DNA of 64,000 nucleotides from assembly GCA_039183535.1 (NCBI GenBank), contig JBCDBO010000011.1, positions 1,404 to 65,403 of the forward strand, in the 5' to 3' direction. Below, in pieces: positions 3,255 to 12,631 of the stretch (positions are counted from its first letter, which is position 1; the number at the start of each line of letters is the position of its first letter). Made by a program: the position numbers and the translations under genes. Below the pieces are notes generated by a model. That model did not search any database. It saw only the letters and a list, made by a program, of their open reading frames with translations, and was not told the DNA's origin. Source of the DNA: Pseudomonadota bacterium. Lineage in GTDB: Bacteria > Pseudomonadota > Gammaproteobacteria > Steroidobacterales > Woeseiaceae.

Positions 3255-5720
3255 TCAGTCGGTAAAGGCATCTGCGGCGTCGCGAATTCTTGTCGCTTCC
3301 GCAAGTCGCCAAGGTTGTACGTTTACCTCTTCCCGCCGAATTTTCGAACCGGCGGCAGCCAACGCCCTTGCGACCTCAGCATTGCCAGCGGCGAGTTCTG
3401 CCTCGGCGCGCCAGAGCGTGACGTCAGACGCCCATTGATTGCCGGGCGATGTCCACTGCGGTCCTGACTGAATGAGCGTGTAGGCTTCCCGCAGATTATC
3501 GGTGGCCTCGTCGATCATTCCTGTTTCCAATAGGGCTTTGCCGAGTATCGATTGAACTCGCCCGGCCGCTGGCGTCTGTTCGCCAACCGTCGCTTGCATT
3601 CGGCGAAGTATGTCGGGTAGGGCGCGCAGCGCTTGCTCGCTATTGCCCAAGTAAACATTGGCGCGGGCGAGATTGATTTCCAATGCAAGTCGAGTAAACG
3701 AGTCGTTGGGCAATGCGCCTTCAGCAATCTTAGTGGCCTCGAGCAGCGCCGATTTTGCCGTGTCGAACTGTCCAAGAGCGATGTAAGCGGCGGCCACGTT
3801 AAGCTGCGCGGACACCAGGCCCACATAGTCGTCACCGAAGCGTTGCTTCGTCCGCTCGATACATTTGGTGTATGTCGCAATCGCATCATGGAGGCGCCCA
3901 AGTCCGTCATAGGAGTAACCGAGGTTGCAAAGTACGGTGATAGCGCTCGTGCGCAGGGTGTAGCCGTTCTCTTCAGCGATCTGCAGTGCTTCTTCTTTAA
4001 GTCTCGCGCCGCGCTCGAAATCGCGATTAGCTTCGTGGACGGAGGCGAGGTTGGACAGGTGAACGTATTTCAAATAGACATCGTTCGGCGCCAGTGCCGC
4101 TAGTATTTCGCCCTTTCGTTCCAGGTTGTCGATGCTAATCTGTATTTGTTCTTTGGTTTGGCCCCCAGTCGGGTATAGCAGTGGCGTGGATCCCAGTACA
4201 TCTGCGAAAGCCAGCGTATCGTCCATACCGAGCGCCTGGTATTCCGCAATAGCCCGTTGCATAACCTCGCGGGCGCGGTCGTAGTCGCCAATCGATGTGT
4301 ACATAGGGCCAATGTCGCCGAGGGCCAATGCACGTTTTTCGTGTGGCATTGGCTTCGTCGTGTCATGGTAGTCCAGGACTCGCTCCGCGAACATAAGCGC
4401 CTTTTCGGAATCCCCCAGGCCCTGGTAGCCCGACGCAATCAACGCCATGATGTCGTGACGTATCTCGTGCGAGGTCTGGAGTTCGCGGTCTATCCGTAGC
4501 GCGGCTTCATCCATGACGTCGCGAAGCGTGATGTCGACGTTACCGGCGACCTCTGGATCAACGCGATCAAAAAGACTACGGACGAAAGTTGCTGTTTCGT
4601 TGGCACGTCGTGCTTCAACGGTAGCCTGTGAATACTGCCACCAAGTGGCTGCGAGACCGGTACTGAGACTCGCAACAACGGCGGCAATCGCCGTTACGAC
4701 GAGCCGGTTCCGACCAAGGAACTTGCGAAATACGTAGCGCGTTTCGTTGCGGCGTGAGCTGATTGGATAGCCGTCGAGATAGGCGGCTATCTCTAGCCGT
4801 AGTGCATCGACAGACGCGAATCGATCCGTGGCCGATGCGGCCGTGCATTGCTCGATGACTAAACTCAGATCGTGCGATACAACGGCGTTGCCGCCGCTCA
4901 GCAGTGTGCGCAACAGACAACCGAGCGCGTAGATGTCGCTGGCTACCGAATGCGGCTGGCCGCTCTTTAACTCTGGGGCAGCGTAGCCGGCAGAAAATCC
5001 CGTCGGGTGGCCGTCGTAGGATTTTCCCGTCCATTTGCCCACACCAAAATCTAATAGGCGGGCTCGATCATCGGCGACCAGAATGTTCGCTGGTTTGACG
5101 TCACCGTGAACAACAAACGACTGATGGCAATACGAGACCGCATCACAGACTTGTAGAAAAACGGCCAGGCGGCGAGCTTCGGAAAGCGGCGCGCAATAGA
5201 TATCAATTGGCTCGCCAGCAACATACTCCATAACGAAGTACGGCATGTCATCGCCGGTGACCCCGGCATCGATAATCCTCGCAATGTTTGGGTGCTCCAG
5301 TCGCGCTAAGTTCGACCGTTCGTCGAGAAAGAGTTGGCGCTGTTTCTCGGTGTGTTGAAACCGTGGCAGAAACTTTACGGCGACCGTTTGCTCATAAACG
5401 CCGTCGCAGCGTTCCGCCTTAAATACAATCCCCATACCGCCCCGATCGACTAGGGCCGTGATCTTGAATGGCCCAACCTCTGAGCCGACTCGGTCGAGGT
5501 CTTCTTTCAAGAGCATTTCGCTGAATAGAGACGGTGCGGTCTGGTCGATGCTGTACGGTGCCGACTGGTCATCCAGCGCGAGGTTGAGGAGTCGTTCGAG
5601 TCGCTGTGCGGCCTCAGGATGATCGCTTGCAACAGTCTGCAACATAGTGGCACGAGCGCTTGGCGATGCTGCGAGCAAGTCGTCCAGCGCCTTCTCGAAA
5701 TTGAAGTTGCTAGGCGGCAA
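3255..5720 (-). CDS. Membrane Ser/Thr protein kinase (Hanks type) with a C-terminal TPR-repeat region
   Basis: Kinase motifs: DRGGMGIVF (G-loop), VAVKFL, HGDVKPANIL, DFG, YAAPE. One TM helix (LVVTAIAAVVASLSTGLAATWW), then about 430 aa of TPR-like repeats. TTG start at 5720 behind AAGGA. Lies 70 nt downstream of the sigma gene on the same strand. Confidence 0.9.
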   Translation of the reverse strand: MPPSNFNFEKALDDLLAASPSARATMLQTVASDHPEAAQRLERLLNLALDDQSAPYSIDQTAPSLFSEMLLKEDLDRVGSEVGPFKITALVDRGGMGIVFKAERCDGVYEQTVAVKFLPRFQHTEKQRQLFLDERSNLARLEHPNIARIIDAGVTGDDMPYFVMEYVAGEPIDIYCAPLSEARRLAVFLQVCDAVSYCHQSFVVHGDVKPANILVADDRARLLDFGVGKWTGKSYDGHPTGFSAGYAAPELKSGQPHSVASDIYALGCLLRTLLSGGNAVVSHDLSLVIEQCTAASATDRFASVDALRLEIAAYLDGYPISSRRNETRYVFRKFLGRNRLVVTAIAAVVASLSTGLAATWWQYSQATVEARRANETATFVRSLFDRVDPEVAGNVDITLRDVMDEAALRIDRELQTSHEIRHDIMALIASGYQGLGDSEKALMFAERVLDYHDTTKPMPHEKRALALGDIGPMYTSIGDYDRAREVMQRAIAEYQALGMDDTLAFADVLGSTPLLYPTGGQTKEQIQISIDNLERKGEILAALAPNDVYLKYVHLSNLASVHEANRDFERGARLKEEALQIAEENGYTLRTSAITVLCNLGYSYDGLGRLHDAIATYTKCIERTKQRFGDDYVGLVSAQLNVAAAYIALGQFDTAKSALLEATKIAEGALPNDSFTRLALEINLARANVYLGNSEQALRALPDILRRMQATVGEQTPAAGRVQSILGKALLETGMIDEATDNLREAYTLIQSGPQWTSPGNQWASDVTLWRAEAELAAGNAEVARALAAAGSKIRREEVNVQPWRLAEATRIRDAADAFTD

Positions 5721-5790
5721 TTCTGGTCCTTTGGTGCGCGATAGAAGCCTTCTTGGTCATACGATAAATGACGTTGAAGACCGCCAATGC

Positions 5791-12100: not shown

Positions 12101-12631
12101 GAAGCGACGCTGGATGCTGCCGCTGCTGCCGAAGTCGGGTCGCAGATTGCGGTTCGATGGACCGGGCCGGGCAATAAGAACGACTTCATAAGTTTGGCCC
12201 GCGCGGATGAACCGGGTGGACGATATGAGAGTTGGGTGAGCGTGGGTGCGGCTGGCGCAGCGGTATCGCTGACAGCCCCGAGTGCTCCCGGTGAATATGA
12301 AGTCCGCTACGTGCTTTATGAAGACCGCCAAATCATCGCTCGCCGTCCCGTTACGGTTGTTGGCACTGCAGCGACGCTGGATGCTCCCGCTGCTGCCGAA
12401 GCGGGGACGAAGATTGCGGTTCGATGGACCGGGCCGAGCAATAAAGGCGACTTCATTAGTTTCGCTCGCCCAGATCAGCCAGGCGGCCAATACGAAACCT
12501 GGAGCGACCTCAGTCGGGATGGTGCGCCAGTGTCCCTTAACGTTCCGACGACTCCCGGCGAGTATGAAATCCGCTACGTCTTGTTTCGCGATCGCGTAAT
12601 CGTCGAGCGTCGGCAAATTAGCGTTCGCTAA
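9149..12631 (+). CDS. Large secreted multidomain protein: Ig/CARDB-like N-terminal region, (GGGPD)n linker, vWD domain with GDPH motif, three C-terminal ~88-aa repeats
   Basis: Signal peptide MRLLRLLIALIVFPADVYA. vWD-like block CYWHACGWGDPHLISFDGVKFDFQGAGEYWL, with GDPH encoded at 11033-11044. Low-complexity Gly/Pro/Asp tract. Triple repeat with W.GP...DFIS.AR...PGG.YE.W....G..VSL..P..PGEYE.RYV. Confidence 0.85.
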   Translation: MRLLRLLIALIVFPADVYAQTAAITNIAVIDGKVLPGQTITVEYTVTFDRVVEYGKTEMDSVQFADGAGSVWYKVDANSQDTAGPYNAVTAIIGPENQIRHRYQMYVSDLSFIDCGDDSRCLPFLVEVFVANAYGQHRVQIARKTERIPIYSPPISEDQLATRDVIDPGNSADIDPSATNPINLGPGDWGLEKVELIDAESDQVVSSLAAGQLFRFRVTLDAPLVKERFPAILYRFLRTERKHWTLLPINAQNASSAGGGLSHVGELRIEDAVNNERWEMEFKLIPDLQSRDVQISDSAVFEDGNVQNNQITLSIPIEPPLDLRVDSVQPVGNVHAGQYSPGDTVSLRVHLNKSGAGEVPSDLGVTLVTGYAQQPTYTLPVPAFSDPGGGVSFTFDDVRIPEEDFRFAFSTDENGSVWNLLAFLHVGGGGATRDADPSNDRLKFSIPIRTTQEQPAAPSDPTVSLCRARCYERCEGIGYRAGSVLGSACSRWPALAVCASQRNATLGQVQYCKRAACSTSEAMQTCEPTGLTLGSGAGSGGGDSGNGGAGGGGSDGGGGPDGGGPDGGGPGGGGPDGGGGSDGGGPDGGGPDGGGPNGGGPHGGGPDGGGGSGGGVIPPRCYWHACGWGDPHLISFDGVKFDFQGAGEYWLARTRDGEYGVQARMEASGSSVSVVSALAIKSGNNRIMIRNHKPNPISIDGEPLSIEPGLYNAFSDERGLYIVRRSLRDYTIVLPNDLKVRVTTGYAAMSFDISAPDIVSMGLDGLLGSADNDPANDAILANGAVLSGALSSLAREDLYDRLGNSWRVTGADSVFDYDEGKSADDYNVLSFPERVLSTTDLEADVRQRAEKLCREPGVVVAGLLNDCIYDVGFSGDERFADDYVNAATSISLPALGNEARLTAPQTVQIGSQVRVGWVGPANNGDFISLARANEPGGRYESWAGAAGAAVSLTAPSAPGEYEVRYVRYENREIIARRSITVVGAEATLDAAAAAEVGSQIAVRWTGPGNKNDFISLARADEPGGRYESWVSVGAAGAAVSLTAPSAPGEYEVRYVLYEDRQIIARRPVTVVGTAATLDAPAAAEAGTKIAVRWTGPSNKGDFISFARPDQPGGQYETWSDLSRDGAPVSLNVPTTPGEYEIRYVLFRDRVIVERRQISVR
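10748..10993 (+). repeat. 15-nt periodic coding microsatellite encoding (GGGPD/GGGSD)n
   Basis: Reiterated ggc ggt ggc ccc gac units. The spurious Pro-rich and Ala/Thr-rich ORFs on the other frames and strand (10675-11044) are by-products of this tract. Confidence 0.8.
11849..12628 (+). repeat. Three tandem in-frame coding repeats (261, 267 and 252 nt) at the 3' end of the large gene
   Basis: Units start at 11849, 12110 and 12377. Units 1 and 2 are visibly very similar at the DNA level; unit 3 is more diverged. Confidence 0.85.

Follow-up and report, generated by a model that had tools for sequence, protein, structure and literature searches.

An ECF43-type sigma factor and Hanks-kinase pair and the adjacent operon of LpqH-like and vWD/GDPH envelope proteins that it probably controls

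The closest described systems to the locus reported here are two pairs of an extracytoplasmic function (ECF) sigma factor of the ECF43 group and a neighbouring kinase. In EcfP/PknT of Vibrio parahaemolyticus, the sigma factor lacks the DAED motif and is intrinsically inactive, the neighbouring kinase phosphorylates the second threonine of its xTTA motif, and the output is a response to polymyxin that involves resistance genes (PMC8999054). In Xanthomonas citri, the ECF43 sigma factor EcfK is paired with the Hanks receptor kinase PknS, of 833 amino acids, and the output is an amoeba-induced type VI secretion system (PMC13147305). The ECF43 consensus QTTA takes the place of the acidic DAED/DxxD patch that contacts beta-prime in other ECF sigma factors, and the threonine of the motif is the phosphorylated residue in EcfP and EcfK (PMC13147305, PMC8999054, PMC7826278). 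Here, we analyse a stretch of 64,000 nucleotides (the window; contig JBCDBO010000011.1 of GCA_039183535.1, positions 1,404 to 65,403) from a GenBank metagenome-assembled genome (MAG) labelled 'Pseudomonadota bacterium'. In it, a sigma factor gene and a kinase gene face a divergent operon of six genes for exported proteins, which we call the cargo: the small proteins g1 to g5, here termed family A, and the large protein g6. We consider it probable that the sigma factor and the kinase form a module of the EcfK/PknS and EcfP/PknT kind, and that this module is wired to the adjacent cargo operon.

The sigma factor, the kinase and a shared promoter-like motif

The kinase (positions 3255-5720 of the window, minus strand, 821 amino acids) and the sigma factor (5791-6351, minus strand, 186 amino acids) are encoded 70 nt apart in the same direction, with 164 nt between the sigma factor gene and g1. 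In profile searches, which had been suggested in a preliminary description of the locus, the sigma factor scores above the cut-offs of both PF07638 (E 2.7e-37, residues 7-181) and TIGR02999 (165.6 bits, for a cut-off of 126.15). Its region 2.2 reads NPTLQTTAVVNEAY (LQTTAV) and is without an acidic DAED/DxxD motif; like EcfP, it carries the ECF43 consensus QTTA, while the motif of EcfK is QATE. Relatives of the sigma factor (n=8, 58-68% identity) keep NPTL[QHR]TTA. Downstream of the sigma factor gene there is only the kinase gene, and no anti-sigma domain was detected by Pfam and NCBIfam scans in any open reading frame (ORF) flanking it. The product of g1 was considered as an anti-sigma factor and rejected; its weak match to NrsF covers the hydrophobic signal peptide alone, and it has no cytoplasmic N-terminal domain. 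The preliminary description had inferred a kinase-associated module of the ECF43 type without an anti-sigma gene, and the family matches, the QTTA motif, the co-directional Hanks kinase and the flanking ORFs all agree with this. By these sequence criteria, the pair appears to be of the ECF43 type.

The kinase matches Pkinase (E 6.7e-35) and several tetratricopeptide repeat (TPR) families in Pfam and NCBIfam. An N-terminal extension of about 85 residues is followed by the Hanks domain (residues 92-280), one membrane helix (residues 339-360) and TPRs at about residues 460-790. The single hydrophobic helix at 339-360 suggests that the kinase domain is cytoplasmic and that some 460 residues of TPR are periplasmic. 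The catalytic motifs are VAVK113, HGD205, DFG224 and APE248. Most kinases have HRD in the catalytic loop; with HGD in its place, this is a non-RD kinase. The HGD sequence (residue 205 is encoded at about 5106-5108) is common to all nine kinases of the subfamily, those of the window and of eight relatives, and activation in this subfamily may be independent of activation-loop phosphorylation. Relatives retrieved in searches with the kinase fall into two tiers, one of full-length proteins that are 47-56% identical and one at 36-43%.

The likeness to EcfK/PknS is drawn from described layout and motif. Both systems combine a two-domain ECF sigma factor, in which a threonine motif replaces the acidic patch of region 2.2, with an adjacent kinase of about 820-830 amino acids that has an N-terminal extension of about 85 residues, a Hanks domain, one membrane helix and periplasmic TPRs. 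In neither is there an anti-sigma factor, and in both the neighbouring genes are the presumed regulon. That regulon is a type VI secretion system in X. citri, whereas here it consists of LpqH-like lipoproteins and a vWD protein. The kinases of the window subfamily also differ in being non-RD, and a sigma-type motif precedes the kinase gene, a feature for which no counterpart was found in the text of PMC13147305.

This motif, (T)TGGCGG-N17-CGTA, was found by aligning the intergenic spacers by eye. One copy lies at 6431-6457 on the plus strand (6430 with the leading T), 58 nt upstream of the ATG of g1. The other lies at 5760-5786 on the minus strand (5787 with the leading T), within the 70-nt spacer between the sigma factor and kinase genes and 39 nt upstream of the TTG start codon of the kinase. 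All eight other loci examined have it between the sigma factor and kinase genes, with the same 17-nt spacing. In L004-L007 and L029-L031, a copy also precedes the first cargo gene, as it does in L003 with a 16-nt spacer (related loci are numbered with the prefix L). Cargo operons that are relocated or internal have further copies ahead of them (L029 8173-8199, L003 4979, L005 600, L032 2933 and, as a divergent pair, L007 14319 and 14369). Upstream of the sigma factor genes themselves, no copy was found in the window or in the loci scanned. Within the 64-kb window, TTGGCGG-N15-18-CGTA has three matches, where 0.16 are expected. The third of these, at 46561-46589, overlaps the start of a 100-residue ORF on the opposite strand (46281-46583) and probably arises by chance; an N17 match inside g6 (11564-11590) is also considered to be due to chance. 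The match at 46561-46589 happens to lie just upstream of an S-adenosylmethionine (SAM) riboswitch (RF00162, 78 bits; 46720-46839, plus strand), which precedes an ORF (46931-48121) that we read, from its sequence and without a Pfam scan, as a pyridoxal phosphate-dependent enzyme of cysteine and methionine metabolism.

ECF -10 elements typically contain CGT. In its constant spacing, its orientation and its CGT-containing block where a -10 element would lie, the motif is ECF-promoter-like, and the copies at 6431-6457 and 5760-5786 are predicted to be sigma-dependent promoters of the g1-g6 operon and of the kinase gene, respectively. Its location before cargo and kinase gene supports direct control of the operon and feedback on the kinase; the motif is predicted to drive the kinase gene and not the sigma factor gene. 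That the divergent operon is the direct output of the sigma factor had already been proposed, and with this conserved motif of fixed spacing it is the best-supported reading in silico.

Genomic contexts were compared for eight loci containing relatives of the kinase (L003-L007 and L029-L031), seven from the first tier and one at 43% identity. The pairing of sigma factor and kinase is kept in 8/8, and the pair facing genes for exported proteins is the constant element. In L004 (kinase 55% identical), the pair faces proteins of 240, 142, 155 and 163 amino acids, followed by a vWD protein of 1035 amino acids; this cargo comprises clear orthologues of g1, g3, g4, g5 and g6 (phmmer E 1e-23 to 1e-57). 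In L006 (54%), it faces genes of the g4, g1 and g5 types, two small cysteine-rich helical proteins and a vWD protein. L003 and L005 (both 52%) contain a g4-type gene, a Laminin_G_3 giant, a membrane protein, helical cysteine-rich proteins, more family-A genes and a g1-type gene. In L029 (53%), a LamG protein faces the sigma factor, while g3-like genes and genes of the g1 and g2 types form a separate operon on the far side of the kinase. L030 (54%) has g4- and g5-type genes facing the pair, and L031 (47%) a LamG protein. The cargo of the most distant locus, L007 (43%), is unrelated (DUF4412 and a TonB-dependent receptor), with a VWA giant protein nearby. L032, retrieved through a g1 homologue, contains a g6-type gene, a membrane protein, two helical cysteine-rich proteins, three genes of family A and one of the g1 type, and its contig ends before any regulator. 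Overall, cargo of the family-A and vWD kind recurs in L004, L006, L029, L030 and L032, with the vWD gene in the divergent operon in L004 and L006. Co-conservation, put forward earlier as a check on the module, thus extends to eight related loci for the pair and to the closer relatives for the LpqH-like and vWD cargo.

A sister MAG (L002/L008, JBCDIL010000012) contains the module at 96% nucleotide identity; being from the same species, it is not independent evidence. Synteny between it (6734-6765) and the window (3255-3280) ends exactly at the stop codon of the kinase, and its left-hand neighbour is another sigma factor and kinase pair beside Lcl_C and Calx-beta proteins. The g6 protein of the sister MAG has 1372 amino acids against 1160 in the window; an N-terminal module is duplicated in it, and the glycine-rich linker is longer.

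The related cargo clusters also contain a second small exported family that is not present in the window. These proteins are of about 140 amino acids, helical, with conserved cysteines in a CxC...C pattern, and their genes are often duplicated (L003 4117-4952, L005 142-573, L006 4432-5636, L032 2983-3833). In L003, L005 and L032, they have their own TGGCGG-N17-CGTA site.

The window encodes further proteins of the same regulatory classes. A second pair of PF07638 ECF sigma factor and Ser/Thr-kinase/TPR protein is arranged convergently, with the kinase (14280-16583, plus strand) overlapping the sigma factor (16561-17148, minus strand) by 23 nt; this sigma factor diverges from an exported RCC1/PKD protein of 961 amino acids (17304-20189). 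Its region 2.2 has QTDD, not QTTA, and the spacer is without TGGCGG-N17-CGTA. A third Hanks-type kinase (32538-35102, plus strand, 854 amino acids), encoded between a flavin adenine dinucleotide (FAD)-oxidase gene and ilvD, carries a Calx-beta domain at its C-terminus and has no sigma factor next to it.

The cargo proteins

The six cargo genes are on the plus strand: g1 (6516-7223, 235 amino acids), g2 (7220-7675, 151), g3 (7669-8124, 151), g4 (8121-8579, 152), g5 (8647-9129, 160) and g6 (9149-12631, 1160). Their successive junctions are a 4-nt ATGA overlap, a 7-nt overlap, another 4-nt ATGA overlap, a 67-nt gap and a 19-nt gap, and a strong ribosome-binding site, AAGGAGG, is located 8 nt ahead of the ATG of g1. 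On re-checking, all the coordinates and junctions given in the preliminary description proved correct. So did its statement that each of the six products has a signal peptide, lipobox or membrane anchor, as judged by reading of the sequence and a hydrophobicity scan, not by a dedicated predictor. The signal peptides of g1 and g6 end at AHA/QQ and VYA/QT, respectively. Lipobox-like sequences are ITAC in g2 (Cys19), FTAC in g3 (Cys23) and LCAC in g4 (Cys23), with cleaner versions, LTAC and LVGC, in the L004 orthologues; the N-terminus of g5 is a membrane anchor. In GenBank, the start of g4 is placed 26 residues too late (8121-8198 is omitted) and its lipobox is lost, while g5 is unannotated in both MAGs. 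As g5 is kept in four other loci, we take it to be a real gene.

Between g6 and a convergent tRNA-Asn gene (anticodon GTT; 12803-12878, minus strand), which directly follows it, the sequence contains a hairpin, AAAAAAA-GCCCGC-acggtg-GCGGGC-TTTTT (12766-12797), probably a bidirectional terminator that ends the g1-g6 operon; the hairpin was read from the sequence and is absent from the output of a terminator scan. A genomic island was considered because the tRNA gene follows g6 and the sister MAG ceases to be syntenic at the stop codon of the kinase. This idea is unsupported: the region near the end of the kinase gene, at the other side of the module, gave no direct repeat of the tRNA end, so that no att-flanked island is indicated.

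No family was assigned to g1-g5 by Pfam and NCBIfam, and no significant pair was found when they were compared all against all by BLASTP. Alignments of the five sequences alone with MAFFT (A1, A2 and A5) were rejected because the first cysteine was misaligned; paralogy can be demonstrated only with the 21-25 sequences available from related loci. Among these, all family-A proteins (21/21) have two cysteines outside the lipobox, 83-106 residues apart, of which the second is 0-8 residues from the C-terminus, and both are invariant in an alignment of 25 domains. The 21 domains align in register, with a first strand xVxLDGxxYxL...C, a W/F-S-G turn and a last strand LxVxVxC. Hidden Markov models (HMMs) built with one subfamily left out recover at least one member of each omitted subfamily, with E values of 8e-11 to 0.02 among 2781 ORFs; the full family-A model has no other match in the window or the loci. 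Between subfamilies, hhalign scores are weak (best probability 74%, partly inflated by signal peptides).

Within this common plan, g1 has a signal peptide, a helical N-terminal region with the sequence AxMRAxGQSE and a family-A domain at residues 125-235, with Cys146 and Cys232. Lipoproteins g2, g3 and g4 have their paired cysteines at positions 61 and 151 (the C-terminal residue), 55 and 150, and 59 and 151, respectively, and those of g5 are Cys73 and Cys159. L029 and L033 each have an orthologue of g2, and L032 has a related copy; L004 contains orthologues of g3 (E 7.5e-56) and of g5 (E 8.2e-36), the latter also occurring in L006 (E 2.3e-12). In g4, the lipobox and both domain cysteines are invariant across five orthologues (alignment A3). 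Relatives of g1 were identified in L003, L004, L006, L029, L032 and L033. The family is rare, as an exhaustive HMMER search with g1 led to 17 representative clusters among 1.84 billion proteins; a scan of Joint Genome Institute (JGI) metagenomes with alignment A10 gave no match, and a single-protein query then recovered L033.

AlphaFold2, with an alignment of 18 sequences, predicts the structure of g1 with a predicted local distance difference test (pLDDT) score of 86.6; for the C-terminal domain alone, predicted as eight consecutive antiparallel strands, the pLDDT is 95.8 and the predicted TM-score 0.86. A Foldseek comparison of the domain model with PDB and BFVD gave no significant match, with a best E of 0.08 and query-normalised TM-scores of at most 0.48. 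The weak neighbours are the luminal domain of Ac45, lipocalins, GID4 and LolA/MucB-like proteins. Searched against 177,635 PDB sequences, the 25-sequence family-A profile has as its top match 4xin_A, an orthologue of the mycobacterial 19-kDa lipoprotein antigen LpqH (E 4.5e-5), with profile positions 2-110 aligned to chain residues 17-126, from the first strand to the C-terminal cysteine. The Mycobacterium tuberculosis LpqH chains 4zjm and 7fds come fifth and sixth and are colinear (E 0.35-0.39).

LpqH is a lipoglycoprotein adhesin and TLR2 agonist, the structured part of which comprises residues 49-159 (PMC5341126). For direct comparison, we used an LpqH sequence, confirmed as genuine by its matches to PF05481 (E 2.6e-36) and 4zjm (E 6.6e-67). 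Aligned with residues 49-159 by hhalign, family A gives an E of 7e-4, at a low probability of 26%, with both cysteines matched. The two share a structured domain of about 110 residues after a lipobox and linker (g2-g4 have the lipobox; g1 and g5 do not), a first strand xVxxDGxxxxv...C and a last strand fxIxVxC ending one residue from the C-terminus. PF05481 (Myco_19_kDa) itself does not match any of g1-g5 or of the 25 family-A proteins at E<=1, and its scores for two distant members of the g1 family fall just short of the threshold (20.0 and 18.5 bits, for a cut-off of 23). We conclude that g1-g5 are probably a divergent proteobacterial branch of the LpqH superfamily, below Pfam's own threshold for membership. 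The five small proteins, previously assigned to no known family, form one family, remotely related to LpqH. The characterised members and solved structures of the LpqH family are mycobacterial (PF05481; PDB 4ZJM, 7FDS and the orthologue 4XIN), whereas here the host is a proteobacterium, with five paralogues per operon and some of them without a lipobox. To our knowledge, a link of such proteobacterial proteins to LpqH is new. Homology to LpqH gives the fold a name but not a function.

The large protein g6 starts with a signal peptide and repeat modules (residues 1-470), followed by a cysteine-rich segment (465-530), a glycine-rich linker with GGGPD (535-615), a vWD domain (627-790), a conserved extension to about residue 885 and three DUF7490 repeats of about 95 residues each (885-1160). 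From their ...NN...IPIEP endings, our impression is that the N-terminal modules are beta-rich or Ig-like, without support from Pfam. The vWD domain matches PF00094 (residues 627-783, E 5.8e-12, 46.6 bits for a cut-off of 22.9) and begins CGWGD/PH; DUF7490 scores 29.9 bits, for a cut-off of 27, when the C-terminus is scanned alone. A PDB sequence search with g6 finds the vWD domains of FCGBP and MUC2 (chain 8rde_A of FCGBP, E 1.8e-22), and GWGDPHLISFDG is in register with the (W)GDPHY motifs of the FCGBP domains. In these, GDPH is the autocleavage site. The unusual vWD/GDPH architecture noted earlier for the sixth product is confirmed by the PF00094 match and by this alignment; for g6, cleavage is a prediction. 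Common features with FCGBP, MUC2 and RGM are thus the PF00094 domain, the aligned GDPH and a weak RGM_C signal after the domain. Unlike them, g6 is prokaryotic and lacks TIL and C8 modules, having instead the N-terminal repeats, the linker (glycine-rich here, proline-rich in relatives) and the DUF7490 repeats as flanks.

Orthologues of g6 in L002, L004, L006, L032 and L033 are 39-50% identical over the vWD domain and repeats, with GDPH kept in those of L004, L006 and L033; their N-terminal halves are completely different. Such a combination of a conserved C-terminal part and a divergent N-terminal half would be typical of exposed, fast-evolving surface proteins. More distantly, at 24-36% identity, a vWD domain with GDPH and an extension of about 100 residues occurs in the archaeon Halorubrum aquaticum, the cyanobacterium Dolichospermum, Acidobacteria, Myxococcales, Lysobacterales and others (L009-L028). 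In 3 of these 20 loci (two from Lysobacterales, one from Blastocatellia), a PF07638 sigma factor and a kinase are encoded upstream.

Proposed mechanism and alternatives

In the mechanism that we propose for the ECF43-type module, the periplasmic TPR domain of the single-pass kinase would sense an extracytoplasmic cue. The kinase would then phosphorylate the QTTA threonine of the sigma factor, providing the negative charge for core RNA polymerase binding, as homology with EcfP and EcfK suggests. The resulting holoenzyme would start transcription at the two putative TGGCGG-N17-CGTA promoters, that of g1-g6 and that of the kinase gene, with positive feedback on the kinase as sensor and not on the sigma factor. 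The operon would send to the envelope five paralogues of the eight-stranded, two-cysteine beta-domain of about 110 residues (three of them lipoproteins, one signal-anchored and one secreted) and a secreted vWD/GDPH protein of 1160 amino acids with predicted autoprocessing.

Several points weigh against this reading. Phosphorylation, promoter activity and operon induction are what we infer from sequence data. The motif was called ECF-like from its layout, not by a match to an experimentally defined ECF43 promoter. The count of TGGCG[GCT]-N17-CGTA sites in the window and eight loci (23 in 172 kb, against 1.3 expected from Markov-simulated sequence) is partly circular because the motif was derived from these same loci; its independent part consists of the window-only test and the sites at relocated operons. 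Furthermore, L003, L029 and L030, together with L032, which was found through its g1 homologue, are all from the single assembly GCA_020357715.1, and could represent either paralogous modules or a bin that mixes different organisms. The LpqH structures 4xin, 4zjm and 7fds are not among the best 50 Foldseek matches in PDB, of which none has E<=1e-3.

A final point comes from L033, a JGI contig (Ga0207422_1000175, 253 kb, of which we considered 1-20714) retrieved by a single-protein query with a g1 homologue (P0144). Here, genes of the g4, g1, g2, g3 and g5 types are followed by a g6-type vWD/GDPH gene. As in the window, five family-A types and a vWD/GDPH gene diverge from a TPR-containing regulator; in L033, this is a cytoplasmic AAA_16/TPR_MalT/GerE protein, a LuxR-type STAND regulator, instead of the sigma factor and kinase. 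Neither a sigma factor nor a kinase is encoded within 10 kb, and the TGGCGG motif is missing ahead of the cluster, so that the cargo does not depend on the sigma-kinase regulator. The surroundings also differ: the neighbours are a phage-type integrase, a DDE transposase, an ankyrin-repeat protein, a RovC-like regulator and TrbI, and the cluster may travel on a conjugative element. The same cargo under another regulator indicates a separable unit, one that need not belong to an ECF43 system.

As to what the cargo does, our guess is an inducible assembly at the surface or in the envelope that serves adhesion or protection. It is possible, though we think it rather unlikely, that the cargo is instead an envelope-stress or lipid/ligand-handling kit, or a toxin/immunity-like set in which g6 is the effector and the small proteins are protective. 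Lipocalins, Ac45 and LolA/MucB-like proteins among the structural neighbours of the domain hint at handling, but none of these matches is significant. Arrays of small paralogous periplasmic proteins resemble immunity-gene arrays, yet Pfam scans recognise no toxin or enzyme domain in g6, and the domains of the large cargo proteins (vWD and DUF7490, with Laminin_G_3 in L003, L029 and L031) are binding or structural ones with no catalytic signature. Known ECF43 outputs include a polymyxin envelope-stress regulon for EcfP and a type VI secretion system for EcfK, while LpqH is described as an adhesin (PMC5341126).

Regulation of the sigma factor mainly by other means than phosphorylation, be it an undetected anti-sigma function, located in the 85-residue extension of the kinase or encoded by a distant gene, or transcription of the sigma factor gene, seems improbable to us. 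Such regulation would fit the observation that EcfK with the T51A mutation still works in X. citri, where other phosphosites matter (PMC13147305), and the kinases considered here are unusual in being non-RD, with a conserved, uncharacterised N-terminal extension. On the other hand, QTTA replaces the acidic patch that ECF sigma factors need for core polymerase, the catalytic residues of the kinase are all intact, and nearby genes encode no anti-sigma domain and no protein made up of a cytoplasmic domain and a membrane helix. The sigma factor gene is without a recognisable promoter, a point that also favours the alternative.

There is even less reason to believe that the divergent operon is under a different regulator, its adjacency to the pair reflecting a common envelope theme or shared horizontal transfer. 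L033, with its LuxR/STAND regulator, no sigma factor or kinase within 10 kb and no motif, is an example of such an arrangement, and the cluster of L032 has a Trans_reg_C/TPR regulator beside it, but a regulator swapped in another genome is no argument against regulation here. Wherever the pair is present, the motif of fixed spacing precedes cargo and kinase gene, and it follows the cargo when this is relocated (L029 8173-8199; L007 14319 and 14369).

Least probable of all, we believe, is that TGGCGG-N17-CGTA is the operator of a separate DNA-binding regulator or a structural element. In favour of this, its -35 part differs from the textbook ECF sequence GGAAC, no published ECF43 promoter match stands behind it and a terminator scan puts one copy in a weak terminator-like hairpin. 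Against it, the motif keeps strictly to the orientation of the gene that follows (22/23 sites and one in L032 share the strand of a gene whose start codon is 21-92 nt further on, in spacers otherwise unconserved), and it has a fixed 17-nt spacing and a CGTA that resembles a -10 element. It occurs only with this sigma subfamily, with no copy in L033 or in the promoter region of the window's second sigma module.

Significance

Nothing in the locus overturns current knowledge. The preliminary description had put it forward as the best candidate for an undescribed system; this holds for the cargo, which is a rare combination of two families, and does not hold for the regulatory logic, which has already been described. 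A more far-reaching, speculative view, to which we give little credence, is that the five LpqH-like proteins and the vWD/GDPH protein are a self-contained, horizontally mobile and undescribed surface-assembly system with interchangeable sensors. In mucin-type vWD domains, GDPH cleavage generates a reactive species. By analogy, the envelope-anchored LpqH-like paralogues might dock the autoprocessed vWD protein and perhaps capture it covalently. If true, this would be the first functional context for the LpqH fold.

For the ECF43 family, the conserved candidate promoter and the small, well-defined predicted regulon make this pair unusually informative. The location of the motif before the kinase gene, and not before the sigma factor gene, bears on how phosphorylation-gated sigma factors may be tuned. 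The cargo joins the LpqH-like and the prokaryotic vWD/GDPH families, both poorly understood, and would offer a tractable way to ask what their roles are.

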